Positions 11,499 to 63,250 of a stretch of DNA of 64,000 bases are shown here, in pieces. Position 1 is the stretch's first letter. Each line of letters begins with the position of its first letter. The position numbers and the translations under genes are program-made. The notes below the pieces were generated by a model. The model made no database searches and had not been told where the DNA came from. It worked only from the letters and a program-made list of their open reading frames with translations. The DNA comes from an uncultured Candidatus Saccharibacteria bacterium (lineage in GTDB: Bacteria; Patescibacteriota; Minisyncoccia; UBA6257; UBA9933): positions 65,801 to 129,800 of the forward strand of contig CAZXNT010000002.1 of assembly GCA_964642155.1 (NCBI GenBank). The letters run 5' to 3'.

Positions 11499-11570
11499 GC
11501 CGCGGTAGCTCAGTGGTGGAGCGCATCCCTGAAGAGGATGGCGTCGGGGGTTCGATTCCCTCCCGCGGCA
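11499..11570 (+). tRNA. tRNA-Phe (anticodon GAA)
   Basis: Acceptor GCCGCGG/CCGCGGC. D-arm AGCTCAGTGGTGGAGC. Anticodon stem CATCC/GGATG with loop CTGAAGA. T-arm GGGGG-TTCGATT-CCCTC. Confidence 0.9.
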
Positions 11571-19122: not shown

Positions 19123-19544
19123 TGAAAGATTATTAATAAAATGACAATGCTAAAAAACATATCAAGCGGATGAAGACTTCGGCAAGTTTTTTTATTGTCT
19201 TCACCCCGCTTTCAAGCGGGATTTTTATTTTTTATGTCAACTAAAGCTTTGTTTTTTGAAAAAGTTTCAGTTGGTGTGAAAATCAGAATTTGTTGGTTGG
19301 TTAGTTTTTTAAAAATTGAATACAGGAAAATAAAAATAAAAGTAAAGTTATCCAACTTCTTGAATTCTGAATTTCAAGAAGATTTATTTAAGGGCGTATG
19401 GTGGATGCCTTGACATCAAACAGCGATGAAGGACGTGGCGTGGCTGCGATAAGCTTCGGGGAGGCGCTTAGCAACCTTTGATCCGAAGATTTCCGAATGG
19501 GGAAACCCTGCGCTGAAAACCAGCGTAAGCGCTGCTTTTCAGCG

Positions 19545-19628
19545 AATTTAGGATTACAAATTAAGAATTTAGAATTACGGAAAAATTATTTTTTAATTCT
19601 GCATTCTGCATTCTGAATTTTGAATTCG
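19545..19628. repeat. family A inverted-repeat element inserted in a 23S rRNA 5'-domain helix tip
   Basis: AGCGAATTTAGGATTACAAATTAAGAATTTAGAATTACGG..AATTCTGCATTCTGCATTCTGAATTTTGAATTCGCT. Perfect terminal inverted repeat AGCGAATT/AATTCGCT. Confidence 0.75.
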
Positions 19629-20029
19629 CTGCAAAGCAGCGTGGCTTACCCGCTGAAGTGAAACATCTCATTAAGCGGAGGAACAGAGAATAATAATTTA
19701 TTCCCCTAGTAGCGGCGAGTGAAAAGGGAGGAGCCTAAACTTATAAAAAAATTCGCAAGAAAATTTTTATAAGGGTTGCAAGACAGAGACGCTCTTTTGC
19801 TTTTCGCGAAGTCCTGAACTTATTGAAGGATTTCGCGATTTGTGAAAGGTGGAAGAGTTACAAATTCTTTGGTTAGCCAAATTAGCTGGAAAGCTGAACC
19901 ATAGCGGGTGATAGTCCCGTAGGCGAAAACCGAAGAACTCTTTAGTTTTTGATCTTAAGTACCTCGATGACAGGATGCTTCGAGGGAATCATCCGGCACT
20001 ATCCGGAAAGGCTAAATATGTTTGATGAT

Positions 20030-20066
<37 letters not shown>

Positions 20067-22004
20067 CAGGCCGGCGAGGCCGATGAAATAGTATCTGAAA
20101 CCATATGTCTACAAGGAACGGAAGTCCGCAAGGACGACCGTGTGCCTATTGAAGAATGAGCCAACGAGTTTATTTTACTCCTTTGTCTAAGCTTTACGGA
20201 GCGGAGGCATAGGGAAACCGAGTCTTAATAGGGCTACTATTAAGGGGTGGAATAAGACCCGAAGCCAAGCGAGCTTGCCCTGATCAGGATGAAGCGGAGG
20301 TAAAACTCTGTGGAGGTCCGAACCGGTTGGTTGTGCAAAACCTTCGGATGAATTAGGGTAAGAAGTGAAAAGCTAATCGAGCTTGGTAATAGCTGGTTCT
20401 CTCCGAAATAGCTTTAGGGCTAGCGTCGGGCAAAAATATATCTGGGGTAGAGCTACTGGTTGAGAAGTAATGGGGGAAACCTCGGCTTCTTAGTCAAACT
20501 CCGAATACGGATATAAATCGGTCCGGCAGTTAGAATGTGGGGGCTAAGCTCCATATTCAAAAGGGAAACAGCCCAAATCGTCGTCTAAGGTCCCTAAATA
20601 TTTGCTAAGTGTTAAAGGTAGTGATTCGCCATAGACAGATAGGAGGTTGGCTTAGAAGTAGCCATCCTTTAAAGAGTGTGTAACAACTCACTATTCGACG
20701 GCGAATTGCGCCGAAAATTTACCGGGGCTAAGCAAGTTACCGAAGACACGAATTTCGCCGCAAGGCGAAGTGGTAGGAGAGCATTTCAAACGCACTGAAG
20801 CCGGACTCGCGAGAGCCGGTGGAGTGTTTGGAAGAGAGAATGTTGGCATGAGTAACCACAATCCCAATGAGAATTTGGGACTCCGAAAATCCAAGGGTTC
20901 CTCCGTAACGGAAATCGACGGAGGGTTAGGCGATCCTAAGGCAATGGCGAAAGCCGCAGCTGATGGGAAGCTGGTTAATATTCCAGCCCCTCTGTATAGT
21001 TCGATGTGGTGACGAAGAAAATAAGATTGAGCGTCTTAATGGTTTGACGTTGTTTGTTTCCAGAATTTTTCGACAGGCAAATCCGTCGGAATGCTTTTAA
21101 CGGCAAAATTCGGAAACCGAAAAAATTCGCTTACGGGCGGAAATTCAATCGAAGAGTCTTCCGAGAAAAACCTCTAAGAATAGCTATATAGAGATCGTAC
21201 CGTAAACCGACACAGGTGGGTGAGGCGAGAAGCCTAAGGAGAACGAGTGAGTCTTCGTTAAGGAACTCGGCAAAAAAGCGGCCGTAAGTTCGCAATAAGG
21301 CCTGCCCGCAGCAATGCGGGCCGCAGCGAAAGTATCTCTAGCGACTGTTTAACAAAAACACAGCTCCCTGCGAACTCGCAAGAGGATGTATAGGGGGTGA
21401 TGCCTGACCGATGCGAGAAGGTCAAGCTTGGCGGTGCTTTGCAGCAATGTGGAGTGCTGACTGGGTTAAGCCCTCGTCAATGTCAGCGATAACTATAATC
21501 GTTCTAAGGTAGCGCAATTCCTTTTCGGGTAAGTTCCGAAGCGCACGAATGGTATAACGACTGGAGAACTGTCTCAACGAAGAGCTCGGTGAAAATGCGA
21601 TTCCCGTGAAGACGCGGGATACCTGCAACGGGACGAAAAGACCCCGGGAGCTTTACTGCAGCTTGATATTGTTTTTAGAATTTTGATGCGTAGCGTAGTG
21701 GGGAGCCTTTGAAGCTTCGCTTTCGGGCGGAGTGGAGGCGTCAATGAAACACCCATCTTTAAAATTTTAAAGACTAACCTTGGCGGCAAAAACGTCAGGG
21801 AACAGTGTCTGGCGGGCAGTTTAAATGGGGCGTTTTCCTCCTAAAAAGTAACGGAGGAGTTTATTAAGGTCGGCTAGGAGCGGATGGAAATCGCTCTCGT
21901 CGTGTAAACGCACAAGCCGGCTTAACTGCAAGGCCTACAAGCCGCGCAGACGCGAAAGCGGAAGTTAGTGACCCGACAATTCTTTATAGAAAGGTTGGAG
22001 ACAC

Positions 22005-22038
<34 letters not shown>

Positions 22039-22233
22039 GTTGCCCGAGAGTCCTTATCGACGGCAACGCTCGGCACCTCGATGTCGGCTCATCACAGCGC
22101 GGGGGTGAAGAAGCTCCCAAGCGTTTGGCTGTTCGCCAATTAAAGTGATACGTGAGCTGGGTTCAAACCGTCGTGAGACAGGTTGGTCTCTATCTGTTGC
22201 AGGCGTTGATATTTGAGGGAAGTTGACCCTAGT

Positions 22234-22957
22234 AAGAAATTGCTACTTCGCGGAGTAATCCGCGATGACAATTTGGCTAATAACGGTGAAGTCTTAATAT
22301 TTGATTATCATAATCGGTCTGAATGATAATTTACTTGAGGACCAAGAAATGTTAAGATAATACCGTGGGAAGTCAATCTAAAATAAATTTAGCATATATC
22401 GCTGGTTTTCTTGATGGCGATGGAAGTCTGATGCTCCAAATTAAAAAACGGAAAGATAGCAATAAATCGTATAGATTTATGGCTACTATTTGTTTTTATC
22501 AGGATTCGCGGCATGAAAAACCGCTTTTCTGGATACAAAAAGTTTTAAACATCGGATATTTATCTAAAAGAAAAGATGGCATAAGTGAATTAAGAATCAA
22601 TGGTTTTAAACAAATCGAAAAAATTCTTAATAATTTATCACCATTTATTAAATTTAAGAAAATTCAAGCGAAAATTCTTTTAAAGTCTGTAATTTTTCTT
22701 CAAAAATCTGATTTAAAAGAAAAAGATTTGAGGATATTAGTAAATAATATTATTCAAATTCAATCTGAGAATTATGTTTCTAAGAAAAAGCGGACAAAAG
22801 AAGAATTGTTTAAAATTTTAGGTTTGACCCCGTAACGACTGAGTCTAAAAAAGACAAGATAGGAATTTTAAAATTTCTATAATATGCCGATATCCAATCC
22901 CGCCATGGCGGGAGGATAAAGATATAGTCTACACACATAGTGATATGTGATTATGTG
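22234..22957 (+). mobile_element. intron in 23S rRNA (group I-type inferred) carrying a LAGLIDADG homing endonuclease ORF
   Basis: Exon junction rebuilds the conserved CCUAGU|ACGAGAGGACC. 5' exon ends in U and the insert ends in G. The HE ORF is internal. Confidence 0.7.
22365..22835 (+). CDS. LAGLIDADG homing endonuclease (single-motif, homodimer type)
   Basis: LAYIAGFLDGDGSL motif near the N-terminus. 156 aa, I-CreI-like size. Confidence 0.85.
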   Translation: MGSQSKINLAYIAGFLDGDGSLMLQIKKRKDSNKSYRFMATICFYQDSRHEKPLFWIQKVLNIGYLSKRKDGISELRINGFKQIEKILNNLSPFIKFKKIQAKILLKSVIFLQKSDLKEKDLRILVNNIIQIQSENYVSKKKRTKEELFKILGLTP

Positions 22958-23089
22958 ACGAGAGGACCGGGTTGAACAAACCTCTGGTCTACCGGCTTTG
23001 CCACCAGGTGAAGCGCCGGGTAGCTATGTTTGGCAGGGATAAGCGCTGAAAGCATATAAGCGCGAAGCCTTCCCCAAGATTAGATATCA

Positions 23090-23121
<32 letters not shown>

Positions 23122-23233
23122 TTAGGTGTAAGCACAGCAATGTGTTTAGCCAAGAAGTACTAATAAGTCGGATTTTCTTCTAAAAAATTCAGGATTCAAC
23201 AAGTTGGACAACAAACGCGCCAAGATTTTTATT

Positions 23234-23350
23234 TGCTGGTGTTTTACTTATACATGAACCACTCCTTCCCATTCCGAACAGGACAGTGAAAGTGTGTAAG
23301 ACTAATGATACTTTTCGCCTCGGCGGATGGGAAAGTAGGCTATGCCAGCA
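23234..23350 (+). rRNA. rrf: 5S ribosomal RNA
   Basis: TGCTGGTG..CCAGCA terminal helix. Internal CCCATTCCGAACAGGACAGTGAAAG matches the 5S loop B/C consensus. Confidence 0.8.
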
Positions 23351-23447
23351 TATAAAAGTTTTGGCGTTTTTTTATTTGTAAGGTATAATATTTATAATTA
23401 ATTAACGAGTTATTATTCATTGGAAATTGTAAATTGTAAATTAAAAC

Positions 23448-51369: not shown

Positions 51370-51444
51370 TCCGCAGTAGCTCAGTGGTAGAGCGGTCGCC
51401 TGTTAAGCGATTGGTCGTAGGTTCGAATCCTACCTGCGGAGCCA
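51370..51444 (+). tRNA. tRNA-Asn (anticodon GTT), CCA encoded
   Basis: TCCGCAG-TA-GCTCAGTGGTAGAGC.. Anticodon loop CTGTTAA. T-arm GTAGGTTCGAATCCTAC. Ends CTGCGGAGCCA. Confidence 0.9.
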
Positions 51445-51702
51445 AATTTTTAGCTATATTTTGTAATGGCTATTTTTCCTACTTTAGTAGAAGCTTGGAT
51501 CAATGTAATCATCTACTTTATTATTACCTAAGCCAATTCGCAAATTTCCAAATTGTCTTTGAGCACCTTGGCTAATACTAATATTATTTGTTATTACTCT
51601 TTACAGGATAGAGGGAATAAGATTAGAATATAATAACGGTGTGGGATTATTGCATTTATAATATATATTAGCTTAACTATAAACAATATTTAGTATAAAT
51701 TT

Positions 51703-52425
51703 ATGTCAATTAAACAATCATCTTTAGAAAAGAAGTCGTTATATAGGATTGCAAAAATATTTTTTTTACTGCTTCCATGGTTAGTTTTAGCCGTTGTTTT
51801 TTTAGGGGGGTATATAATTATTCCTGAAATAACACAACAACATATTATTGCAGCTTACATAGTGGGAGGATTAATTTTATATTATTTATTTTTAAATTTA
51901 ACATGGAGAGGTTTTCTTTACATTGTATTCGGAGGATTAGAAAATGACACAAAAAAACCAATTACTGCGAGGGTACAACCTGTTAGTCCAATTACTCAAC
52001 CAGTTCAAAAACCAAATCAAGCTGCCCCTGTTTTTGGCATTCTCGTGTTTGTAATTATTCTCGTTATTATTGCAACGTACTCATCAAAAAATACATACGG
52101 TACTAACTGTTCTAACGAAGGTGAAAAGGGTTTATATGGAACAGATGGGGGTTGCTACACATGTACCATCGGTGATGTTGCTGGTACTAGTCCTGCAAAT
52201 AATTGTTCTGTTGGCACGGCTGGGGTTTATTGTTGTAATAATTCTAGTGGAAATAATGGAGTAACTGGCAATAGTAAATGTGTTGCTCCTTGTGGTAAAT
52301 TATGGGATTGCGGGGGAACGTATTATCCACCATCAGGAGTACGGACAGACGTTAGTGGCTGTTTTACTATAAATCAGTCCTATCTTCACAACTGGAATGG
52401 TACTTGCATTAAACGATGTAATTAG
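51703..52425 (+). CDS. membrane protein with 3 TM helices and a C-terminal extracytoplasmic Cys-rich (12 Cys) Gly/Asn/Thr-rich domain, hypothetical
   Basis: No recognised family. Cys spacing CSNEG..CYTC..CSVG..CC..C..C..C..C..C. Confidence 0.5.
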   Translation: MSIKQSSLEKKSLYRIAKIFFLLLPWLVLAVVFLGGYIIIPEITQQHIIAAYIVGGLILYYLFLNLTWRGFLYIVFGGLENDTKKPITARVQPVSPITQPVQKPNQAAPVFGILVFVIILVIIATYSSKNTYGTNCSNEGEKGLYGTDGGCYTCTIGDVAGTSPANNCSVGTAGVYCCNNSSGNNGVTGNSKCVAPCGKLWDCGGTYYPPSGVRTDVSGCFTINQSYLHNWNGTCIKRCN

Positions 52426-52485
52426 TTTGTATTCTTGATGTCAATACTTATTTGAACATCGTCCCATGTTCGGAGCACATATAAA

Positions 52486-52515
52486 AAACAGGTCAAATAT
52501 AAACCTGTTTTTTTA
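52486..52515 (+). terminator. rho-independent terminator (AACAGGT-CAAATATA-AACCTGTT plus T-run), copy 1
   Basis: Sequence is near-identical (one mismatch) to 57458-57487. Confidence 0.6.
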
Positions 52516-52758
52516 TTTGGCTCCCGATAAAAAAACAATAATCCTGAAATCTTGCACTGAGCTTGTCGAAGTGCTCCGCGCTAACGCGCGGGTGGCGGAC
52601 TTTCCGGACACGGCTCGCGGGCAAAAAGTTTCCTCCCTTTCAGTTTTTCACGACTTTCAGCCGCGTTCCGCACGGTTAGAGATTGAAGAATTGACACAAA
52701 GTGGCACCTGTTATAATGTGGTATTATATTTAGAAGCGCATAAAACGATATTTAAAAT

Positions 52759-55173
52759 ATGAAATCTGTAAAAATATTTTCATTTTTTCTAATAGGTCTT
52801 GTTATGGCCGGTGCTTTATCATCGGCAAGGCCGGCGTTTGCGCAAGAAGTGGCTCAGGATGTCAAAGTCTATGCCGAGAACATGAAAAACGACGCTGGGG
52901 CAATTGGCGCCGTTACGGAACTGTTCGGCAAGGACGCGCCAATAGTGAAGAAATTTCAGTTGGGCGTTAAGCTTGGGGAATTCATCACGCGCGTAAGTCA
53001 GGGCGACGTACTCGATGCGGCAATAGATTTAGCAAAATATGAATTAGAACAAGTGATAGATACTATAAAAGGGAAATTATTCGGTCCTTTCGCCGCCGCG
53101 GCTGATTTAGGAAAATGGCTTGGTGAAAAAGGTAGAAATATGCACTTCGTCTCGGTTTTTAATGCTGGATATGAGATTTACAAAAGAGAGAACGGTCAGG
53201 GCGAATTTTACATTTCTGAAATAGCCGGATGGTGGGATATAGGAGGAAAAAAGTTTGAGAAAGAAAAAGGCGATTTGCCGGCATGGAAAAAGGTATTTAA
53301 AAATCTTTATGAAGCGGAAAAGTTGGCGGCCGGAATTAAGCAAGAGGATATTCAGAAAGTTGAACAGGTAAAAAAAGAGGTTAAAAAAGAAGTATTTATC
53401 ACTTTTTTCAAAACCAAATACATAGGCATGCCCGCTGACATTGCTGAAGAGCTTGCCGAGCTCATAGTCAATAAAGCCAGTAATGTGGAGATTGAGAAAT
53501 TTATTGACAAACACAAAAACACTCTTAATAATCTTTCTATTGCGAAACCCGCGAATCAGGAAGGAGCGGCTTCGGGAAGTGGCATTTGCGAAACGATAAA
53601 AGACAAAGACTCTCAAGACTTTCAAGATTTCAGAAAAAATTGCGAAGAAATTTTGGCGGAAATCGTGGATATGAAAAACCAAGTTTTTTCCAATAAGATA
53701 ACTTACTATGATTATTCTAGGCGGACTAATGGCCGTCAAATTGCTTACCTCGATGGTATTGGCAAGGAAAACTTTACCAAATTTAAAAAAAGCCAAGAAA
53801 ATATTATTGCTTCTGCCTACGAATTTCAGTTTGGGCAAGAAATACGAGCGATAAATGATTCCTTGGCTACAAACAAAGACAGATTTCAAGGCCTAAAGAG
53901 CGATTATAAAAATCTTCCAAAGCAAGGAGATCATTGGAACGCGCCATCCTATAAGGTTTCCGTAAATAAGAGTTTTACGCGTGTTTTCAACAATGTTTAT
54001 AATATGGTTTTCAATTACGGGAGTTTTAGTTATGAAGATTTTAAGAACGGAGACGCTCAAAAAAGTTATCAGCCATATTTTGACAATGAAACTAAGGCGA
54101 ATATTGCGGATGACGCAAGAACAAGATATTTAAAAGCGCATCTCAACAGATTAAATGGCTTGGTTCGCGATTTTACTATTTTACAAAACAGGATAAACTC
54201 TCTTATCTCGTCAGCTGAATCAGCCAATGGAGTATTCAGCTATGGGCAAATAAGAATAGATGATTTAAAGAAAATGGTTTCGGAAATTGAGGAATTGAGA
54301 GAAGACATCCAATCCGGAGAAAGGCCTTGGTGGATGGTCTGGAGACAGCGCGACCCGTGGAGTATTAATTCTGTGTTAGAAGCTATTAAGGGAATGGAAA
54401 GTTATAAAAAAACACGCGGGGAGGAAAATGAACAACTAAAAAAAGATTATGCTTCGGCTTTTAAAATTTATGAAAAGGAAGAGAAACTGCTGGAATTGGA
54501 AAAACAGAAACAAGCTGAAGAAGAAAAAAAGGCCGCCGCGGAAGAAAAAGCGCAGGCTCTGAAAAAACAAAAGGCAGAAGAGGATGCCGTTAAACAGGAG
54601 CGAGCGGGATGGGAGGCAGAAAAACAAGCGGCCGCCGAAAAAGCTGACCCGAAGACAAAAAGCACTGACGCATTTAATGTTCCATTCGGAGAAAGTCAAA
54701 AAACAACGCTGAGTAAATCAGTACCAACGATCGAAACAACTAAACCCGCTACAATACAAACAAAACCAGTTCCCCCTCCAGCACAACCCTCTACACAATT
54801 CTCCGCGCAAAAAAAACCAACTCGCCCAACTGGAAAGAGCTTTATACCACATTATTACAAAAGAATAGCGGGTTTTTCTTTTATCAATCAAAGTGAAGCC
54901 GATATGATGGTATCCGACTTTTCCTGGAATGATGATGGAATTAATGCACTTGGTGCCGGAATATTAAAACTAGGGGCTAAATCTATAGATGATGTCTTTT
55001 CTGTTCCAACCTCGGGATATGAGGACGGTCCCTATCAGCCGGAGGTAGGTCACGTTTATGTCATTAAAACTAAAGGCGATAAATATGGCGTTATTGAAAT
55101 AACACTTATTGAAACAGATTATCTATATTTTTATTGGAGATATCAGAATTCAGACGGCTCTTCTTCTTTTTAG
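52759..55173 (+). CDS. large secreted protein (804 aa) with signal peptide, central coiled coil and Pro/Thr/Gln-rich linker, hypothetical
   Basis: Signal peptide MKSVKIFSFFLIGLVMAGALSSARPAFAQE. Lys/Glu/Ala-rich coiled coil at about 590-660. C-terminal beta-rich domain. A TTGACA..TATAAT promoter lies at 52691-52720. Confidence 0.55.
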   Translation: MKSVKIFSFFLIGLVMAGALSSARPAFAQEVAQDVKVYAENMKNDAGAIGAVTELFGKDAPIVKKFQLGVKLGEFITRVSQGDVLDAAIDLAKYELEQVIDTIKGKLFGPFAAAADLGKWLGEKGRNMHFVSVFNAGYEIYKRENGQGEFYISEIAGWWDIGGKKFEKEKGDLPAWKKVFKNLYEAEKLAAGIKQEDIQKVEQVKKEVKKEVFITFFKTKYIGMPADIAEELAELIVNKASNVEIEKFIDKHKNTLNNLSIAKPANQEGAASGSGICETIKDKDSQDFQDFRKNCEEILAEIVDMKNQVFSNKITYYDYSRRTNGRQIAYLDGIGKENFTKFKKSQENIIASAYEFQFGQEIRAINDSLATNKDRFQGLKSDYKNLPKQGDHWNAPSYKVSVNKSFTRVFNNVYNMVFNYGSFSYEDFKNGDAQKSYQPYFDNETKANIADDARTRYLKAHLNRLNGLVRDFTILQNRINSLISSAESANGVFSYGQIRIDDLKKMVSEIEELREDIQSGERPWWMVWRQRDPWSINSVLEAIKGMESYKKTRGEENEQLKKDYASAFKIYEKEEKLLELEKQKQAEEEKKAAAEEKAQALKKQKAEEDAVKQERAGWEAEKQAAAEKADPKTKSTDAFNVPFGESQKTTLSKSVPTIETTKPATIQTKPVPPPAQPSTQFSAQKKPTRPTGKSFIPHYYKRIAGFSFINQSEADMMVSDFSWNDDGINALGAGILKLGAKSIDDVFSVPTSGYEDGPYQPEVGHVYVIKTKGDKYGVIEITLIETDYLYFYWRYQNSDGSSSF

Positions 55174-55787
55174 TAATTATGGCATTCATAGGAGTTTTAT
55201 TTTCAATCTTTGGTTTAATCGCGGTTGGCGCGGCAATCTTGGTAATGCTTTGGGGCATGGGATTTTTTCAGTATTTGGGCGGAAAGAAAAAAACTCCTTC
55301 GGCCATTGGCAAAGAAGCGTTGAAAGAAAAAATTCTTGCTCTCAATTCACCGGAACTTCCTTACCAAATAACGCCTGCTAAAGAAACAGATTTTTTGCTT
55401 GAATGGAAAATTGTTGATGCCAAATGGTACGGAATTTTTTCCAAAGAAAGAGTGGAAAAAACTTACCATGCCTTAATCCTATTGGACGATAACCGCAAAA
55501 CAGCGCGTTATTACGAGGAATTAGGAAGTGTTGAGTGGCATATCGGCACAGACGGCATTTCAAAACCAAGTGTTCTCTATAGAAAGGAATTTTTTAAGGG
55601 CAGGATATTGTTTAAAAAATCGTGGGGGGTTCAGTATGGAATAAAAGAGAGCGGTGAGTTCGGCAAAGTGTACAAATATAAGTTTGATATTGGCTATGCG
55701 CGCGATCCTCTTAAAAAAATCGTCCTGGAAAGCGGTTGGGAATTTGTGCCGGTCGTCAGAAAGAAATACACGCTTCGCAAAAACTAA
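55134..55787 (+). CDS. hypothetical membrane protein (2 TM) with a cytoplasmic domain
   Basis: Overlaps the end of the preceding gene by 40 nt, so the two are probably co-transcribed. Confidence 0.4.
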   Translation: MEISEFRRLFFFLVIMAFIGVLFSIFGLIAVGAAILVMLWGMGFFQYLGGKKKTPSAIGKEALKEKILALNSPELPYQITPAKETDFLLEWKIVDAKWYGIFSKERVEKTYHALILLDDNRKTARYYEELGSVEWHIGTDGISKPSVLYRKEFFKGRILFKKSWGVQYGIKESGEFGKVYKYKFDIGYARDPLKKIVLESGWEFVPVVRKKYTLRKN

Positions 55788-55851
55788 GTTTGTTGCGATT
55801 TTCCATCGGGAGCCAAGAATGACTACTTGCTAATTCTAGTACTAAATTAAT

Positions 55852-57438
55852 ATGTCACTCCTTACAAAAACAGATTTTATTTTATATCGAGAGTGCCCAA
55901 ACAACGTTTGGGTAAAAAGACATAAGCCCGCGGAATATGCAAAGTTTGAGATTTCGGAGTTTGAACAATCTCTTGCGGTAATGGGTAACGAAGTAGAAAA
56001 GTTGGCGCGAGGAATGTTCCCCGCAGGCTTTCTTATTGAACGACGCAGTGAAAGAGCGCAAGAGCTAACGAAGAAACTTATTACAGAGCGCGCGCCAGTC
56101 ATTTTTCAGGCGGTTTTTGCAACTGATAAATATCTGACTGCCGCTGACGTTCTAAAATGGAATGAATCGGCGCAAAAATATGACATATACGAAATAAAAA
56201 TGTCTTCAACAGAGGAAGACGATGATGAAGAGGAAGAAGGAAAACCTAAAAGAGTCAACAAAAAAAGAGAACTTCAATATGAGTATGACATCGCTTTTCA
56301 AACCAATGTCATAGAAGGCTGTGGAATACCGCTGAACAAAAAGTATTTAGTCCGTCTCAATAGAAAATACGTTAGGATGGGAGAGCTTAATTTCATACCA
56401 GGAGAACTTTTTATTGTAGAAGATAAGACGGAAGTAATAGACCGTCTAAGTCCCACTGTTGCAATAGAAATGTCACAAGCACAAACTTATCTTTCCACTA
56501 CAAAAATACCAGTAGCGCCGTGCCCTTGTTACTACAAAGGGCGCAGTTCCCACTGCACCGCATTTACCTACATAAACCCACACGTGCCTGCATACAGCGT
56601 TCACGACTTGAATAGAATTGGAAACAGTAAAAAGTATCTCAAGGAGCTTTTAGATGAAGGTATTTTGGAGATTAGCGATGTACCGATAGACGACAGGCTC
56701 AAACCAAAGCCGCCGAAAGCTGGCGCAAAACCCGGTAAGCCGAGGAAGCTAAATCAAATTCTAGTCCATAAGTCCCAAGAGCCTCTGGTGAATCTTGAGA
56801 CTCTCAAAGCTGAACTTGATTCACTTACTTTTCCTCTTTATTTTCTTGACTACGAGACATATCCGACAGCAATTCCTCCTTACAACGGGTATTATCCATA
56901 TCAGCAAATTGTCTTTCAGTATTCACTGCACGTCTTAAAAGATAAAAATTCGGAACCAATTCATTTTGAGCGTTTAATACTAGATGGAGAACCATCTGAA
57001 CGTATAGCGGAAAGTTTGCGAAAGAATATTGGCGACACGGGAACAGTTATCTCTTGGTTCAAGACTTTTGAAAACTCCCGAAATAAGGAATTAGCGGGGT
57101 TTCTACCAATCCATAAGAATTTTTTTCTCGGTATTATTGGTCGCACTTATGACTTAATGGACATTGTAGATGGTCAACATTATGTGCACCCTGGATTTAA
57201 GGGAAGAGCATCAATCAAAAAAGTCTTACCAGTCTTGGCTCCACATCTTTCTTATAAAACGCTTGGTGTCCAAAGTGGTACAGATGCTATTGAGGCTTAT
57301 CGAAAAATTACCGCAGGAGAGATAAGTGGAGAGGCGCTAAAAGATAAGGAACGCGAGATGCTTAAATACTGCAAACTTGATACTTATGCGATGTACGTAT
57401 TATGGAGATTTTTTAGCAATGAAATAAAAAAAATATAA
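55852..57438 (+). CDS. DUF2779-type protein: N-terminal PD-(D/E)xK (RecB/Cas4-like) nuclease fused to a C-terminal DEDD/RNase-H-like exonuclease domain
   Basis: D..EIK nuclease motif (AADVL..YDIYEIKMS). FLDYETY and YCKLDTYAM are DnaQ-like Exo I/Exo III motifs. Acidic linker DDDEEEEG. Confidence 0.6.
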   Translation: MSLLTKTDFILYRECPNNVWVKRHKPAEYAKFEISEFEQSLAVMGNEVEKLARGMFPAGFLIERRSERAQELTKKLITERAPVIFQAVFATDKYLTAADVLKWNESAQKYDIYEIKMSSTEEDDDEEEEGKPKRVNKKRELQYEYDIAFQTNVIEGCGIPLNKKYLVRLNRKYVRMGELNFIPGELFIVEDKTEVIDRLSPTVAIEMSQAQTYLSTTKIPVAPCPCYYKGRSSHCTAFTYINPHVPAYSVHDLNRIGNSKKYLKELLDEGILEISDVPIDDRLKPKPPKAGAKPGKPRKLNQILVHKSQEPLVNLETLKAELDSLTFPLYFLDYETYPTAIPPYNGYYPYQQIVFQYSLHVLKDKNSEPIHFERLILDGEPSERIAESLRKNIGDTGTVISWFKTFENSRNKELAGFLPIHKNFFLGIIGRTYDLMDIVDGQHYVHPGFKGRASIKKVLPVLAPHLSYKTLGVQSGTDAIEAYRKITAGEISGEALKDKEREMLKYCKLDTYAMYVLWRFFSNEIKKI

Positions 57439-57457
57439 TTATGATGTATTTAATAAA

Positions 57458-57487
57458 AAACAGGTCAAATATAGACCTGTTTTTTTA
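57458..57487 (+). terminator. rho-independent terminator (AACAGGT-CAAATATA-GACCTGTT plus T-run), copy 2
   Basis: See 52486-52515. Confidence 0.6.
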
Positions 57488-57534
57488 AAAGAGCAAATGG
57501 TAAAATATGATTGATAATTTAATGAAATAGCGAT

Positions 57535-58518
57535 ATGAAAAAAGATAATTTTCAAAAAGGCGAAATAGTGATTTACCAAGCGTCATCAGGCACCATTGAA
57601 TTTCGCGGCGATTGGGAAAAAGAAACGATTTGGGCAACACAGGCAGAAATAGCTCGGGCTTTTGATGTTACGCCACAAAACATTACGATTCATCTGCACA
57701 ATATATTTAAAGACGACGAACTTAATAAGGGGTCAACTTGTAAAGAATCCTTACAAGTTCAGAAAGAAGGCAAAAGGGAAATTGGGCGAAAGATGAAGCT
57801 GTATAATCTTGATGTCATTATTGCCATTGGTTATCGTATTAATTCCGTTGTTGGTACAAAATTTCGTCAATGGGCCACAAAGACCTTACGTGAGCATATT
57901 ACTAAGGGCTATACCATAAATCGCAAACGCATTGCGCAAAATTATAACGCGTTTATGAAAGCAGTCGCCGATATTCAGACGCTCCTGCCGAAACATATTA
58001 CTCTTGATCCAAAGACAGTTCTTGAACTCATTAAAGAATTCGCCAGCACTTGGGTTTCGCTTGACGCTTACGATAAAGAAACGCTTGAGGTTGTCGGAAC
58101 AACTAAGAAAGCGGTCAAGTTAATTGGGAAAGAACTGACCGGCGCGATAGAGAACCTTCGAGCCGAACTGATTAAAAAAAGCGAGGCAACGGAATTGTTC
58201 GCCCAAGAAAGACAATTTGGAAATATCGAAGATATTGCGGGGAATGTTATGCAATCATTCGGAGGCAAACCGCTTTATCCGAGCGTGGAAGAAAAAGCTG
58301 CGCATCTTTTGTATTTTATGGTGAAGAATCATCCCTTCACTGACGGCAATAAACGCTCCGGCGCTTTTGCCTTTGTTTGGTTTCTACGTAAATATCGCGC
58401 TAAAGAAAACCGCAATATTAATCCAGCGAGTTTAACCGCCCTTACACTTCTTATCGCCGAAAGTAATCCCCAAAAAAAAGAACAAATGGTAGCGTTGGTA
58501 ACGCAATTACTTAAATAA
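57535..58518 (+). CDS. RhuM-family protein with a C-terminal Doc/Fic-type domain
   Basis: N-terminal RhuM-like region (IEFRGDWEKETIWATQAEIARAF). C-terminal HPFTDGNKRSGAF, a Doc-type HxFx(D)GNKR motif. Confidence 0.7.
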   Translation: MKKDNFQKGEIVIYQASSGTIEFRGDWEKETIWATQAEIARAFDVTPQNITIHLHNIFKDDELNKGSTCKESLQVQKEGKREIGRKMKLYNLDVIIAIGYRINSVVGTKFRQWATKTLREHITKGYTINRKRIAQNYNAFMKAVADIQTLLPKHITLDPKTVLELIKEFASTWVSLDAYDKETLEVVGTTKKAVKLIGKELTGAIENLRAELIKKSEATELFAQERQFGNIEDIAGNVMQSFGGKPLYPSVEEKAAHLLYFMVKNHPFTDGNKRSGAFAFVWFLRKYRAKENRNINPASLTALTLLIAESNPQKKEQMVALVTQLLK

Positions 58519-58591
58519 TAATTACACTAACCCAATCCCGCGAAGCAAAAATCATCTATCAAAAACTGTTGAAAATTGATAAAATAAAACT

Positions 58592-59428
58592 ATGAACAAT
58601 AAAAAACAAATTTCAATTTTTGAAGGCAAACAAATCCGTCGTCACTGGGACGAGGAAAAAGAATTATGGCATTTTGCCGTTATGGATGTGGTGGAAATCT
58701 TGGCGCAAACCGATAGACCAAGAAAATATTGGAATGATTTAAAAACCAAGTTAAAAGCGGAGGGCAGCGAGGTGTCCGAAAAAATCGGACAACTGAAAAT
58801 GCGAGCTTCTGACGGCAAATTTTACCTTACCGATACGGCAGACACGGAAACGATGTTTCGTATTATTCAATCCATTCCTTCGCCTAAAGCCGAACCGTTT
58901 AAGCTCTGGCTGGCTCGGGTGGGTTATGAGAGAGTGGAGGAAACCGAAGATCCGGAAAAAGCCATCCAAAGAGCGTTGGCGACTTATCTCAAAAAAGGAT
59001 ATTCTAAAAATTGGGTTGACCTGCGACTAAAAAGCATTGAAATCAGAAAAGATTTAACCAATGAATGGGACGAGCGAGGCGTAAAAACAAATAATGAATT
59101 CGCCATTTTGACTGACGATATTTCTTTCGCTTGGGCGGGATTAAAAACCAAGGACTACAAAAAGCATAAAGATTTGAAAAAAGAAAATCTGCGGGACAAT
59201 ATGAATAACCTTGAATTAGTTTTGAATATGCTGGCGGAAACGGCAACCACGGAAATTTCCAAAAAACGGGAACCAAAAACTTTTCCGGAGAATAGAAAAG
59301 TAGCGCGCGAAGGCGGAGGCATTGCCGGCAACGCCAGAAAACAAATTGAGGCAAAAATAGGAAAACCGGTTATCAGTAAATTGAGTTTTAAAAAAATACA
59401 GGAGCAGAAAAAGCTAAACGAAAAATAA
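58592..59428 (+). CDS. DinD-like (DNA-damage-inducible protein D) with an N-terminal Bro-N domain
   Basis: ISIFEGKQIRRHWDEEKELWHFAVMDVVEIL is a Bro-N signature. Length and C-terminus are DinD-like. Confidence 0.7.
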   Translation: MNNKKQISIFEGKQIRRHWDEEKELWHFAVMDVVEILAQTDRPRKYWNDLKTKLKAEGSEVSEKIGQLKMRASDGKFYLTDTADTETMFRIIQSIPSPKAEPFKLWLARVGYERVEETEDPEKAIQRALATYLKKGYSKNWVDLRLKSIEIRKDLTNEWDERGVKTNNEFAILTDDISFAWAGLKTKDYKKHKDLKKENLRDNMNNLELVLNMLAETATTEISKKREPKTFPENRKVAREGGGIAGNARKQIEAKIGKPVISKLSFKKIQEQKKLNEK

Positions 59429-59432
59429 ATTT

Positions 59433-60116
59433 ATGACCAAATCATTTACTATTCACGATTTACCTAATGAAGAACGCCCGCGCGAACGATTAGTTAAATT
59501 TGGAGAACAAGCGCTCTCGGCCCAAGAATTATTACAACTTATTTTGGGGAGGGGAATTGCCGGTGAATCAGTGGTAATTACGGCGCAAAAATTATTATCG
59601 CAATTTGGCAGTCTTCAAAAATTATCCGAAGCAAGTATTGAGGAATTATCCTCAATTAAAGGAATTGGGCTGGCAAAAGCCACTCAAATAAAAGCCGCGT
59701 TTGAAATCGGCCGTCGGCTTTCCACACAGACCGCGCCATATAAAAGCAAAGAACTTACCGAACCCAAAAAGGTGTATCAATTAATAAAAAGCAAGCTCAA
59801 AGATTATCATAAAGAGCATTTTTATGTTATTGCTCTTAACAGCAGAAATCACTCCATCGCGGAAATTTCGGTCGGCTCTCTTAATGCCAGTATTGTTCAT
59901 CCGCGCGAAGTATTCGCGGAAGCCATCAAAAACAAAGCCGCCTCAGTTATATTCGTTCATAACCATCCATCAGGCGACTCCGAACCATCAGAAGACGATT
60001 TAATAATTACTAAAAAATTAGTTGAGTCCGGCAAGATTTTGGGGATTGAAATAGTTGACCATATTATTGTCGTTAAAGACAGTTTTTTTAGCTTTAAAGA
60101 TAAAGGATTAATATAA
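59433..60116 (+). CDS. radC: RadC-like JAB/MPN domain protein
   Basis: N-terminal HhH (ELSSIKGIGLAKATQI). JAMM motif HNHPSGDSEPSEDD. Confidence 0.8.
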   Translation: MTKSFTIHDLPNEERPRERLVKFGEQALSAQELLQLILGRGIAGESVVITAQKLLSQFGSLQKLSEASIEELSSIKGIGLAKATQIKAAFEIGRRLSTQTAPYKSKELTEPKKVYQLIKSKLKDYHKEHFYVIALNSRNHSIAEISVGSLNASIVHPREVFAEAIKNKAASVIFVHNHPSGDSEPSEDDLIITKKLVESGKILGIEIVDHIIVVKDSFFSFKDKGLI

Positions 60117-60188
60117 AATTATTTTATTTAAGAAGTATAATTAGAAATTTGACAATTATACATTAAGGCTATAAAGTATAATTACAGT

Positions 60189-61325
60189 ATGGAAAAGTCA
60201 ATATTTACAACAAATGCCGCGGGGAAAGTAATAAAAACCGAAAAGGGTTATTTTGCTTTTGCGCCTAATCCACTCCCGCCATTGTTGGAATTTAATAATG
60301 ATTTAGTTAACGCGCTTTCGCAGGCGGATATTGCGTTGGGGAAACTTGCGGGAGCCGCAAAACGTTTGCCTAACCCGCATCTTTTAATTCAGCCCTATTT
60401 AAAAAAAGAAGCGGTTTTAAGTTCAAAAATAGAAGGAACGCAGGCATCATTGTCTGATTTATTTGAGGCGGAAATTGGCGCCGTCGAAAAAACCGATGAC
60501 ATTAAAGAAGTAAATCAATATGTGAAAGCAATGGAATACGGATTGAAACGTATTAAAGATTTTCCTTTGAGCCTTCGTTTTGTTCGCGAACTCCATAAAA
60601 TTTTGATGGAGGGGGTTCGAGGCAAACACGCTGCGCCGGGAGAATTTAGAGTAAGTCAAAATTGGATTGGCAATCCCGGCTGTACATTGGAAGAAGCAAC
60701 TTTCGTCCCTCCCTCTGTCGCCACAATGAATGAATCTCTTAATGACTGGGAAAAATATTTGCATCAAGACAAAAAACTTCCGACTCTTATAGATTCTGCC
60801 TTAATTCATTATCAATTTGAGGCTATTCATCCGTTTCTTGATGGCAATGGAAGAATAGGGAGATTGTTTATAACTCTTCTTTTGGTGAATAAGGAAATTT
60901 TACCACTGCCTCTTTTATATTTAAGCGCCTTTTTTGAAAAATACAGAAGCGAGTATTACGAATACCTTATGCAGGTAAGCACAAAGGGATTGTGGAATGA
61001 TTGGTTGATTTTTTTCTTGCGCGGCGTGCGCGAACAAGCGACAGAAGCGTTGGCAAATGCTGATAAAATTTTGGCCCTACAAGAAGAATACGACAGAATT
61101 ATAAAAGAAAATCATTTGAGCGCCACAGTGAGCAGGGTGCTTGATTTATTGTTTCAAAATCCGTATATTACGATTCCTCGGGCCGCTTCCTTATTAAAAA
61201 CTACTTTTGTCACTGCCAAACGGTCGGTGCTCCACCTCGAAAAACTCGGTATTGTAAAAGAAATAAGCGGTAAAGAAAAAGGAAGAGTTTTTCTTGCCTC
61301 AAAATTATTAGATATTTTAAACTAA
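60189..61325 (+). CDS. Fic family protein with a C-terminal winged-helix domain
   Basis: Canonical Fic motif HPFLDGNGRIGRL. Inhibitory-helix-like SKIEGTQASL is present upstream. Confidence 0.8.
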   Translation: MEKSIFTTNAAGKVIKTEKGYFAFAPNPLPPLLEFNNDLVNALSQADIALGKLAGAAKRLPNPHLLIQPYLKKEAVLSSKIEGTQASLSDLFEAEIGAVEKTDDIKEVNQYVKAMEYGLKRIKDFPLSLRFVRELHKILMEGVRGKHAAPGEFRVSQNWIGNPGCTLEEATFVPPSVATMNESLNDWEKYLHQDKKLPTLIDSALIHYQFEAIHPFLDGNGRIGRLFITLLLVNKEILPLPLLYLSAFFEKYRSEYYEYLMQVSTKGLWNDWLIFFLRGVREQATEALANADKILALQEEYDRIIKENHLSATVSRVLDLLFQNPYITIPRAASLLKTTFVTAKRSVLHLEKLGIVKEISGKEKGRVFLASKLLDILN

Positions 61326-61366
61326 AAGATTTTAAGTTTTAAAAGAAAAATGTTAATATAAAAGAT

Positions 61367-63250
61367 ATGGTTCAATATAAAAAACTCAAAGAAGAAATTA
61401 TTACAGAACCAGAAAAAGGCAAATCAGGATTTGTTAAAGATGCTATTTCTAATGAGTGGATTAAAAAAACGCCCGAAGAAGAAGTGCGTCAAATTTATCT
61501 TCAAAAATTAATTAAAGAATATAAATATCCCAAAAGCCATATTAAAACTGAAGTAAAAATTCAATCCGGTCAAACTGAAACAAAAAAACGAGCCGATATT
61601 GTTGTTTTTAGGAATGATAAAAATTTTAGGCCCGAAGAAAACGCTTATATTATCGTTGAACTTAAAAAGCGAGACAGAAAAGACGGCGAAGAACAATTAA
61701 AAAGTTATATAAATAGCACTACCGCCGAATTTGCCGTTTGGTTTAATGGACAAGACATAGGTCATTTCCAGTACTCAAAAGATCCGAGAAAACATTTGGA
61801 AATTCCGGATATTCCCAAGTATGGCGAATCATTAAAAGATATCGGACTTTATAAAAAGAAGGATTTAGTGTTGGCAAGCGAATTGAAAACGGTTTTCGAA
61901 ACAATTCATAATCATATTTACGCCAATGAGGGCTATTTGAAAGATAAAGTTTTTAACGAGGTTTTAAAATTGATTTTTATTAAAATGGTTGATGAAAAAT
62001 CCGCAAGCGCTGATTGCGATTTTCGCATAACCGTTAAAGAAAAAGAAGAAATAGAAAACGACGACGGAACCAATTTCCGCAAAAGAATTGAAGATTTGTT
62101 TGAAAAAGTTAAAAAAGATTTTAGCGATATTTTTGATAGCACGGATAAATTAATTTTAAGAACTCAAACCTTGGCTTTTGCCGTTGGCCAACTTCAAAAA
62201 TATTCATTGATAAAAACAGAAGCCGATATAAAAGGTGTTGCTTTTCAAACTTTTGTTCATGCTCACTCAAGAGGCGAAAGAGGAGAATTTTTTACTCCTT
62301 ATCCAATTTTAAAAATGGCGGTAGAAATGTTATCGCCAAAAGATAATGAATCAATTTTAGACCCTGCCTGTGGCTCTGGCGGTTTTTTGGTTCAAACATT
62401 GAATTATATAAGGTGTATGTTTGAAAAAAATCGTCCCGATTTATCGGATTTGGAAATTATTAGGAATTTAACGTCTTACGCCATAAATTATATTCGTGGA
62501 ATTGATTTTAATCCCGATTTGGCGCGCGTGGCAAAAATGTATATGGTTTTATATGATGACGGCCACACCGGCATATTTGCGCATAATTCTTTAAATAGTT
62601 TCCAAAAAATTTACGATATTTCTAATCATAAAATTAAAGAAGAATCATTTGATATTATAATAACCAATCCGCCATTTGGCACAAAAGGAAAAGTGACGGA
62701 TAAAAATATTTTAGATGATTTTGAAATGGGCCATAAATGGAAAAAAGACGAAGATAAATGGAAAAAATTATCAAAAATTGCGGCTGAAGACGGAAAAGGT
62801 GGCCAAGTGCCGGACATTCTTTTTATTAAACGTTGCTTGCAGTTTTTAAAAGATGGCGGAAGAATGGCAATTGTTTTACCGGATGGAGATTTAACAAATT
62901 CTTCGCTTGGCTATGTTCGGCAATGGCTCAAAGATAATGCCAGAATTTTAGCGGTTGTTTCTTTGCCGTCGGAAACTTTTATTCCTTATGGTGCTGGTGT
63001 TAAAGCATCGGTTTTGTTTTTACAAAAATTACCGAAAAAAGAGCTGGAAGCGTTAAAGAAAAAAGACTACCCGATTTTTATGGGAATTATTGAAAAAATC
63101 GGATATGACATTCGCGGCCGAGCGATTTATAAACGTAACGAAAAAGGCGAGATTATCAAAAAAGACGATAAACCAACAATTGATGAAGATGTAAGTTTAA
63201 TAATAGAAGAATTTAAAAAATTTAAAGAGAAATATAAGTTGGAGTTTTAG
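61367..63250 (+). CDS. fused PD-(D/E)xK nuclease (HsdR_N-like) plus gamma-class N6-adenine DNA methyltransferase; BcgI-A-like (Type IIB/IIG) restriction-modification subunit candidate
   Basis: N-terminal ADIVVF..IIVELKK (D..ExK). Motif I LDPACGSGGFL and motif IV IITNPPFG. 627 aa. Stop is 3 nt before the next ATG. Confidence 0.75.
   Translation: MVQYKKLKEEIITEPEKGKSGFVKDAISNEWIKKTPEEEVRQIYLQKLIKEYKYPKSHIKTEVKIQSGQTETKKRADIVVFRNDKNFRPEENAYIIVELKKRDRKDGEEQLKSYINSTTAEFAVWFNGQDIGHFQYSKDPRKHLEIPDIPKYGESLKDIGLYKKKDLVLASELKTVFETIHNHIYANEGYLKDKVFNEVLKLIFIKMVDEKSASADCDFRITVKEKEEIENDDGTNFRKRIEDLFEKVKKDFSDIFDSTDKLILRTQTLAFAVGQLQKYSLIKTEADIKGVAFQTFVHAHSRGERGEFFTPYPILKMAVEMLSPKDNESILDPACGSGGFLVQTLNYIRCMFEKNRPDLSDLEIIRNLTSYAINYIRGIDFNPDLARVAKMYMVLYDDGHTGIFAHNSLNSFQKIYDISNHKIKEESFDIIITNPPFGTKGKVTDKNILDDFEMGHKWKKDEDKWKKLSKIAAEDGKGGQVPDILFIKRCLQFLKDGGRMAIVLPDGDLTNSSLGYVRQWLKDNARILAVVSLPSETFIPYGAGVKASVLFLQKLPKKELEALKKKDYPIFMGIIEKIGYDIRGRAIYKRNEKGEIIKKDDKPTIDEDVSLIIEEFKKFKEKYKLEF

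Follow-up and report, generated by a model that had tools for sequence, protein, structure and literature searches.

The 64,000-nt stretch of DNA analyzed here (the window; contig CAZXNT010000002.1 of the uncultured Candidatus Saccharibacteria assembly GCA_964642155.1, positions 65,801 to 129,800) carries three consecutive open reading frames (ORFs) downstream of a tRNA-Asn gene, referred to as ORF1, ORF2 and ORF3. The original prediction for this DNA had taken the three genes for a single accessory module, possibly a host-attachment apparatus. Homologues of ORF1 are never found beside homologues of ORF2 or ORF3, and the real unit is a two-gene ORF2-ORF3 operon, the genes of which we infer to be co-transcribed. 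In the interpretation that we favor, which we regard as evenly poised, ORF2 is a lineage-specific surface protein coupled to ORF3, a conserved membrane partner on the cytoplasmic face. Gene structure, family sizes, conserved adjacency and predicted domain layout were computed directly. The features of the pair are:

52759-55173, forward strand: ORF2, 804 amino acids (aa)
52759-52842, forward strand: signal peptide of ORF2, aa 1-28 (MKSVKIFSFFLIGLVMAGALSSARPAFA, followed by QE)
52843-54363, forward strand: helical domain of ORF2, aa 29-535
54364-54642, forward strand: long Glu/Lys/Ala helix of ORF2, aa 536-628 (93 residues)
54643-54915, forward strand: Pro/Thr/Lys/Ser linker of ORF2, aa 629-719
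54916-55170, forward strand: C-terminal beta domain of ORF2, aa 720-804
55179-55787, forward strand: ORF3, 202 aa from the ATG at 55179 (217 aa from an alternative TTG at 55134)

The ORF2-ORF3 pair and its upstream DNA

Besides the window, ORF2 and ORF3 are adjacent in eight distinct loci (L008/L009, L010, L011, L094, L095, L098 and L100), and the gaps between them range from -1 to +5 nt in the database gene calls. The arrangement is kept where ORF2 itself has diverged substantially. In L094, for example, the ORF2 relative is 25% identical in its N-domain and 48% identical in its C-domain, and an ORF3 relative with 66% identity follows directly. When the same pairs of loci are compared, ORF3 is always far more conserved than ORF2 (77-82% versus 50-53% identity). 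What surrounds the pair changes from one relative to the next: the flanks differ across L008, L094, L095/L098, L096 and L100, and include genes for an IS200-type transposase, an NYN protein and a Laminin_G protein, or for a reverse transcriptase, a MerR protein and a Fic protein, or for an L,D-transpeptidase and a C39-like peptidase. In L096 a tRNA-Leu gene lies about 190 nt upstream of the ORF2 locus, while in L008, L095, L098 and L100 the pair occupies sites that have neither a tRNA gene nor ORF1.

ORF3 had originally been described as a protein with two transmembrane (TM) segments whose gene overlaps that of ORF2, a description that depends on the TTG codon at 55134. Because most homologues are about 200 aa long and begin directly at the hydrophobic helix, the ATG at 55179, 5 nt past the ORF2 stop codon, is the likely start, which leaves no overlap with ORF2 and one TM helix instead of two. 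The public call for ORF3, P0018 (176 aa), starts at an internal Met codon (55257), loses the conserved TM helix and is probably truncated at its N-terminus. The public call for ORF2, P0001 (789 aa), begins 15 residues inside the signal peptide.

Several non-coding elements were found around the pair:

52481-52515, forward strand: 35-nt hairpin, copy 1 (AAAAAACAGGTC...ACCTGTTTTTT), with a T-run, after ORF1
52591-52628, forward strand: GC-rich non-coding block (GGTGGCGGACTTTCCGGACACGGCTCGCGGGCAAAAAG)
52652-52758, forward strand: ORF2 promoter and leader, conserved
57453-57487, forward strand: 35-nt hairpin, copy 2, directly 3' of a gene for a DUF2779 protein

The ORF2-ORF3 pair had been credited with a strong promoter of its own. 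A TTGACA element (52691-52696) and a perfect extended -10 element, TGT-TATAAT (TGTTATAAT, 52709-52717), are indeed present; on the other hand, the 15-nt spacer between them is non-optimal, and a consensus scan missed the promoter. The DNA from 52630 to 52770, which includes a roughly 50-nt block (GACTTTCARCCGCGTTCCGCACGGTTAGAGATTRAAGAATTRACA), is 84% identical at the nucleotide level to the DNA upstream of the L096 orthologue (L096 1430-1580), and yet the N-terminal 142 aa of the two ORF2 proteins are only 45% identical. Such conservation of a promoter and leader above that of the coding sequence would suggest dedicated regulation, and the conserved DNA may act as an operator or as a leader RNA. 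The GC-rich block is also shared with the region upstream of the L008/L009 ORF2 orthologue (L008 about 3620-3660), as found by alignment and motif search. The intergenic GC-rich region matched no Rfam family and its folding z-score of -1.44 is unexceptional, which rules it out as a known RNA. A 98-aa ORF at 52466-52762 was treated as spurious because it has no family match and overlaps the conserved non-coding blocks.

The two copies of the 35-nt hairpin (ATAAAAAACAGGTCAAATATA[A/G]ACCTGTTTTTTTA) are identical at 34 of 35 positions and are the only ones in the 64 kb, where none would be expected by chance. Together they bracket 4972 bp comprising the ORF2 leader, ORF2, ORF3 and the DUF2779 gene. 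Neither IMG/VR nor those relatives' loci that were compared for it contained the hairpin. Copy 1 is probably the terminator of ORF1, and the two copies are most simply read as a bidirectional terminator that was duplicated and marks the limits of a single transcription unit, although they could be a recombination scar. A 12-nt inverted repeat flanking ORF2-ORF3 (TTGGCTCCCGAT / ATCGGGAGCCAA) was considered as a set of terminal inverted repeats and rejected, since L008/L009 retain the upstream copy only.

Predicted architecture and family of ORF2

The signal peptide of ORF2 was judged by inspection and is of the Sec type, with a positive n-region, a hydrophobic h-region and an AxA cleavage site (SSARPAFA, then QE) that are conserved family-wide; the remainder of the protein lacks a later TM segment. 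We therefore infer that ORF2 is exported or located at the cell surface, in line with the original prediction for both ORF1 and ORF2. The predicted succession of an 804-aa secreted protein's parts (signal peptide, long Lys/Glu/Ala helix, linker and beta-rich C-terminus) was also borne out by inspection and by an AlphaFold2 model built from a 17-sequence alignment (mean predicted local distance difference test score, pLDDT, 66.9). The model places helices at residues 31-520, a single helix at 536-628 (E 23%, K 20% and A 17%, together 60%), a disordered linker at 629-719 and beta structure at 720-797. Cys277 and Cys295 are near-invariant in the family, which fits an extracytoplasmic disulfide.

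ORF2 relatives are exceedingly rare. A word-index search recovered a family of 17 proteins, and an exhaustive search of 1.84 billion cluster representatives recovered 18, the query being a helical N-domain profile derived from those family members without the coiled coil. The single named member comes from Candidatus Niyogibacteria, which would suggest a Parcubacteria-type source genome for the window. All members, including the most distant ones (940-1145 aa), keep the signal peptide, the helical head and the beta domain at the extreme C-terminus. This last domain ends in W(K/R)YQxxGxxxF across the family and in QNSDGSSSF in the window. Judged by its sequence, ORF2 is a lineage-specific orphan confined to a tiny clade.

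As originally claimed, all three proteins fall outside described families: ORF1, ORF2 and ORF3 have no match in Pfam, NCBIfam, PADLOC or PHROGs (for PADLOC-DB 2.0, zero families at E <= 1), and the distant members of the ORF3 family belong to no curated family either. Against the PDB, sequence and profile searches with the families of ORF1, the ORF2 N-domain and ORF3 yielded no match with E < 0.1. Foldseek had no match at E <= 0.001 either, whether the ORF3 model was compared with PDB and BFVD or the ORF2 model with PDB. No relatives were found among IMG/VR viral contigs or GenBank phages, and the RefSeq plasmid matches of ORF3 are distant, rhizobial and Streptomyces sequences, every one annotated as 'hypothetical protein'. 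A phage or plasmid origin was rejected on these grounds. Literature searches on DUF6159 and on surface proteins of Patescibacteria yielded no relevant work.

The general architecture of ORF2 nevertheless resembles that of known fibrillar surface proteins. The M-like proteins of streptococci and other such Gram-positive proteins have a signal peptide, a coiled-coil stalk and a Pro/Thr-rich spacer that spans the wall. In ORF2, the signal peptide is likewise accompanied by a long Glu/Lys/Ala helix, by flexible Pro/Thr-rich sequence and by a globular domain at the end. It differs from them in its large N-terminal helical head and small beta module at the extreme C-terminus, and it shares neither sequence homology nor a known anchoring motif with them: Pfam and NCBIfam revealed no SLH, LPXTG, CWB, LysM or PGF-CTERM module, and there is no C-terminal TM segment or sorting motif. 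No adhesin-type or toxin domain was detected with Pfam, NCBIfam or structure search.

The beta domain shows a faint likeness to HmuY (PF14064). Foldseek aligned it with 6eu8, a Tannerella HmuY analogue, at a probability of 0.84, and a profile of the domain searched against the PDB gave 3h8t (HmuY) at E = 0.044, 6r2h (HmuY) at E = 0.23 and 8b6a (a lipoprotein) at E = 0.049 with the whole domain covered. Sub-threshold Pfam matches to HmuY occur in P0159 (the best, 20.1 bits, E = 7e-4) and in 3 of 13 domain sequences; none reaches the gathering score of 27 bits, and window ORF2 has no match at E <= 1. HmuY of P. gingivalis, the family of which also includes non-haem relatives, is a haem-binding lipoprotein of about 190 aa in which a pair of His residues ligates the haem, whereas the ORF2 domain comprises about 100 aa, terminates a large secreted protein and has one semi-conserved His (GHVY) that is substituted in some members.

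The ORF3 family and its genomic company

In ORF3, one long Gly-rich TM helix leads via a GGKKK motif into an alpha/beta domain, which measures about 165 aa. Its AlphaFold2 model has a mean pLDDT of 77.5, with residues 152-182 poorly defined. Three motifs characterize the family (EWKIVDAxWY, GRILFxKS and GWEFVPVV), and all three are present in the window protein. The family is large, with at least 187 clusters at E <= 1e-3 and 275 confirmed matches, in 275 species, in a one-genome-per-species GTDB collection. It extends over Patescibacteria, Chloroflexi/Dehalococcoidia, Methanoperedens, Bathyarchaeia, Thaumarchaeota, Methanomicrobiales, Actinomycetota and many Alphaproteobacteria, and its hosts include many free-living organisms (Rhizobium, Caulobacter, Chloroflexi and Methanoperedens among them), which argues against an apparatus specific to episymbiosis. 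Conserved synteny in all relatives, which would have refuted the idea of an accessory block, is absent; ORF3, its family being present in so many species, is not a lineage-specific accessory protein.

Two subfamilies can be distinguished: a membrane-anchored one (>230 bits) and a soluble one of about 170 aa (about 110-150 bits), found in Alphaproteobacteria and Actinomycetota, with an MGLFDKLKG-like start and with neither TM helix nor signal peptide. In the homologues L027, L028 and L040 a zinc ribbon is fused C-terminal to the domain. Before the TM helix, ORF3 has a very short N-terminus that carries no charge, and after it comes GGKKK. Given the soluble forms, the C-terminal zinc-ribbon fusions and this positive-inside pattern, the domain is predicted to be cytoplasmic. 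The N-termini of the soluble forms (MGLFDKLKG, MGLMDALKG and MGLLDWISG, as in L045, L043, L083 and L066) may resemble the amphipathic, membrane-binding helix with which PspA/Vipp1-type proteins begin; if so, the 'soluble' forms would be membrane-associated too.

Membrane-anchored forms from candidate-phyla-radiation bacteria, Chloroflexi and Methanoperedens or Thaumarchaeota archaea are 50-60% identical to one another (loci L001-L089). Mean identity is 55% between candidate-phyla-radiation and Methanoperedens proteins, 54% between those of Chloroflexi and Methanoperedens, and 51% within Chloroflexi. This similarity does not follow taxonomy, suggesting transfer between the two domains of life and strong constraint.

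Members of the membrane-anchored subfamily typically close a same-strand operon behind genes for unrelated envelope proteins. The upstream partner is a 569-598-aa membrane protein in Azambacteria-like genomes and, in archaea, a surface protein of roughly 700 aa whose C-terminus by inspection shows a PGF motif, then a TM segment with a basic tail. Further neighbors are DUF6159 proteins, PEGA/DZR proteins and small membrane proteins with a zinc ribbon, and double-zinc-ribbon (DZR) proteins form the commonest neighbor cluster, with 16 occurrences. In a hand tally of non-redundant contexts for this subfamily, a TM or signal segment is present in the products of about 10 of the 14 close upstream genes on the same strand, compared with a background of 36% (binomial p about 0.008). 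The clusters of DZR (PF12773) and PEGA (PF08308) membrane proteins in Chloroflexi and archaea, beside which ORF3-type genes recur, sometimes with a zinc ribbon fused to them, are themselves uncharacterized. The window differs from them in having no zinc-ribbon or PEGA gene and in having the non-homologous ORF2 in the upstream place. ORF2 was compared with the 569-aa family of Azambacteria and with the large membrane proteins of Chloroflexi and Methanoperedens, and homology to either was rejected (hhalign probability <1%, hmmsearch null).

As a separate observation, 700-1000-aa membrane proteins encoded beside ORF3-type genes in Chloroflexi and Methanoperedens (L003/L020 9813-12224, L024 10445-13429 and 13439-15748, L029 17-2110, L015 1332-4064) have in common a large cytoplasmic domain (...FIKQTGTHARPGNPGWN...SDFDHTV...NVYGxGTSSxGAYTGGAxKFVENYNQTxGSD...) for which there is no Pfam model; some also contain PEGA domains.

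In the interpretation that we favor, ORF2 would leave the cell via Sec and its signal peptide would be cut after AFA. The mature protein would consist of a helical head of ~500 residues with one conserved Cys pair, a coiled-coil-type stalk of ~90 residues, a flexible Pro/Thr-rich spacer and a terminal beta-sandwich, this last part, distantly HmuY-like in its features, probably being a module for binding or anchoring. ORF3 would be made from the same message and held by its single N-terminal TM helix, with its conserved domain on the cytoplasmic side. There it would serve as a generic partner of variable surface proteins in assembly, anchoring, quality control or signalling, and ORF2 would be the fast-evolving, outward-facing component in its own clade.

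Several observations weigh against this interpretation. Once its signal peptide is removed, ORF2 lacks any membrane segment, and ORF3 has almost no part on the outer side, which makes direct contact between the two difficult to envisage. Confidence in the ORF2 model is moderate, the signals for HmuY all stay below threshold, and the lack of any fold or family match leaves no biochemical handle on ORF2 or ORF3. An ORF2 relative without a nearby ORF3 occurs in L097 and in the most distant relative, L093. Among themselves, the proteins encoded upstream of ORF3 show no homology (hhalign probability <1%), so the adjacency could be a positional habit rather than a sign of shared mechanism. Finally, soluble ORF3 genes lie between rbfA and truB of the nusA-infB-rbfA-truB cluster in L054, L056, L057 and L059 (Hyphomicrobiales/Devosia; IF-2, RbfA and TruB verified with Pfam) and directly after serS in L071 and L082, and another is beside a GGDEF/EAL-type signalling gene, called from sequence only.

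These same observations (the mutually unrelated partners, the soluble homologues in translation operons or after serS, and the ORF2 relatives that stand alone) would be expected if the adjacency had no mechanistic meaning, with ORF3 a general membrane-associated housekeeping or stress factor that tends to close operons, and with ORF2 an orphan unrelated to it, a protein of the surface or S-layer type. The 50-60% identity of ORF3 across two domains of life, whatever its partner, points in the same direction. We consider this explanation unlikely in view of two findings: the pair has kept its tight spacing while ORF2 has fallen to 25% identity, and envelope and zinc-ribbon neighbors are enriched around the membrane-anchored subfamily. 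A broader proposal, to which we give some credence while doubting it, is that an ORF3-type protein, a module of the cytoplasmic face anchored by a TM helix or an amphipathic helix, forms the conserved core of an undescribed membrane system that has been exchanged between Bacteria and Archaea and recruited repeatedly for unrelated, quickly evolving surface proteins as well as for membrane proteins with zinc ribbons; ORF2 would be its client here.

ORF1, the tRNA-Asn border and the defense-type neighbors

Two further features lie upstream of the pair:

51370-51444, forward strand: tRNA-Asn(gtt), called by ARAGORN (Rfam tRNA, 75.3 bits)
51703-52425, forward strand: ORF1, 240 aa, three hydrophobic segments and 12 Cys

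Both ARAGORN and Rfam thus confirm the tRNA gene ahead of the block, and the block lies downstream of it on the same strand, as stated originally; 'immediately 3'' goes too far, as 258 nt separate the tRNA end from the ORF1 start. The description of ORF1 proved accurate. An N-terminal module with two TM segments is followed by a third TM segment and by a Gly/Asn/Thr-rich tail, predicted to face outward, and the protein has exactly 12 Cys (positions 136-239), all within the C-terminal 105 residues. Its family numbers 21 proteins, in which conservation is focused on the two-TM module (residues 1-85) and the Cys-rich tail is variable. ORF1 is a separate gene outside the ORF2-ORF3 unit, as seen from its own terminator-like hairpin, its deviant codon usage and the unrelated neighborhoods in which its homologues reside.

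The tRNA-Asn gene is the border between a core and a variable region. On its upstream side are housekeeping genes (MetRS, LigA, a TyrRS/TrpRS-type synthetase, an ABC transporter, a GatA-like amidase, tRNA-Asp and a MurD-like protein). On its downstream side, Pfam searches of the annotated ORFs identified defense- or mobile-type genes: beyond the DUF2779 gene, the segment 57535-63250 encodes in a row RhuM+Fic/Doc, Bro-N, RadC, Fic_N+Fic and a restriction-modification protein with HSDR_N and N6-methylase domains. The RhuM+Fic/Doc gene (57535-58518) matches the PADLOC candidate PDC-S23 at E = 2.6e-109. The DUF2779 gene (55852-57438) encodes a 528-aa protein with a below-cutoff NCBIfam match to UU173-like proteins. 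By inspection, this protein has a nuclease-like N-terminal half, showing a Cas4/PD-(D/E)XK-like Cys pattern, and a DxE motif in the C-terminal half.

This setting resembles that of tRNA-linked genomic and defense islands, and the original prediction had seen in the tRNA gene a classic insertion point. We consider it improbable that ORF1, ORF2 and ORF3 constitute an accessory island integrated at tRNA-Asn and encoding a host-attachment apparatus for episymbiosis. Consistent with such an island, the block adjoins the tRNA at the switch from core to defense or mobile genes, surface exposure is predicted for ORF1 and ORF2, the flanks of ORF2 loci vary in relatives (one locus being the one past tRNA-Leu), and codon usage is atypical for ORF1 and the DUF2779 gene (distances of 0.41, the second most deviant of the window genes, and 0.335, against a window median of 0.166; third-position GC content of ORF1, 0.216). 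However, no integrase or recombinase was found by Pfam among the annotated ORFs scanned (51445-63250; an island could reach past the window), and no direct repeat of at least 14 nt of the tRNA-Asn 3' end or flank (51370-51480) exists elsewhere in the window, the sole tRNA-Asn-derived match being a generic tRNA 13-mer at 11505. ORF2 and ORF3 have native codon usage (0.115 and 0.195), the GC content of the block (0.32-0.42) is like that of the remaining window, the proposed check of composition sets apart ORF1 and the DUF2779 gene, and ORF1 homologues reside elsewhere than the pair. The wide occurrence of the ORF3 family in free-living bacteria and archaea and the lack of an adhesin-type domain also count against a host-attachment island. 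At most, tRNA-Asn is a putative integration site. An island is plausible for the region taken together and conjectural for ORF2-ORF3 in particular.

The same neighbors raise the question of whether ORF2-ORF3 is a conflict module of a defense island, either a secreted toxin or bacteriocin accompanied by an immunity protein in the membrane, or a pair acting in surface exclusion or abortive infection. RhuM-Fic (PDC-S23), Fic, RadC, Bro-N, the restriction-modification methylase and the nuclease-like DUF2779 protein would fit this, as would the reverse transcriptase, Fic, NYN and IS200-type transposase genes near other ORF2 loci, the position of a small gene after one for a large secreted protein, and the very narrow taxonomic range of ORF2. 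Such a role is nonetheless very doubtful: the identity of ORF3 stands at 66-82% where that of ORF2 is 25-53%, and ORF3 pairs with unrelated proteins, which is the reverse of toxin-immunity co-variation. The lack of PADLOC, PHROG or toxin-domain matches and of relatives in IMG/VR viral contigs or GenBank phages, together with the native codon usage, likewise disfavors it.

Elsewhere in the window, 23S and 5S rRNA genes are located at 19378-23351, with an ORF (22365-22835) between them, and an Rfam scan of the 64 kb gave no small-subunit match for a 16S rRNA gene. Unlinked rRNA genes are common in candidate-phyla-radiation genomes.

Recognizing a two-gene unit and correcting the start of ORF3 avoids the false label of a host-attachment island for this locus. 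ORF2 is a candidate for what these cells display at their surface, and its 18 representatives illustrate how extreme the lineage restriction of surface proteins in ultrasmall bacteria can be. Most of the interest, however, lies with the unnamed domain family of ORF3, which is sizeable and strongly conserved and has neither a Pfam or NCBIfam model nor a solved structure. This family merits a name and a genetic test, which is feasible in cultivable hosts, as homologues are present in Rhizobium, Ensifer, Phyllobacterium, Caulobacter and Streptomyces.

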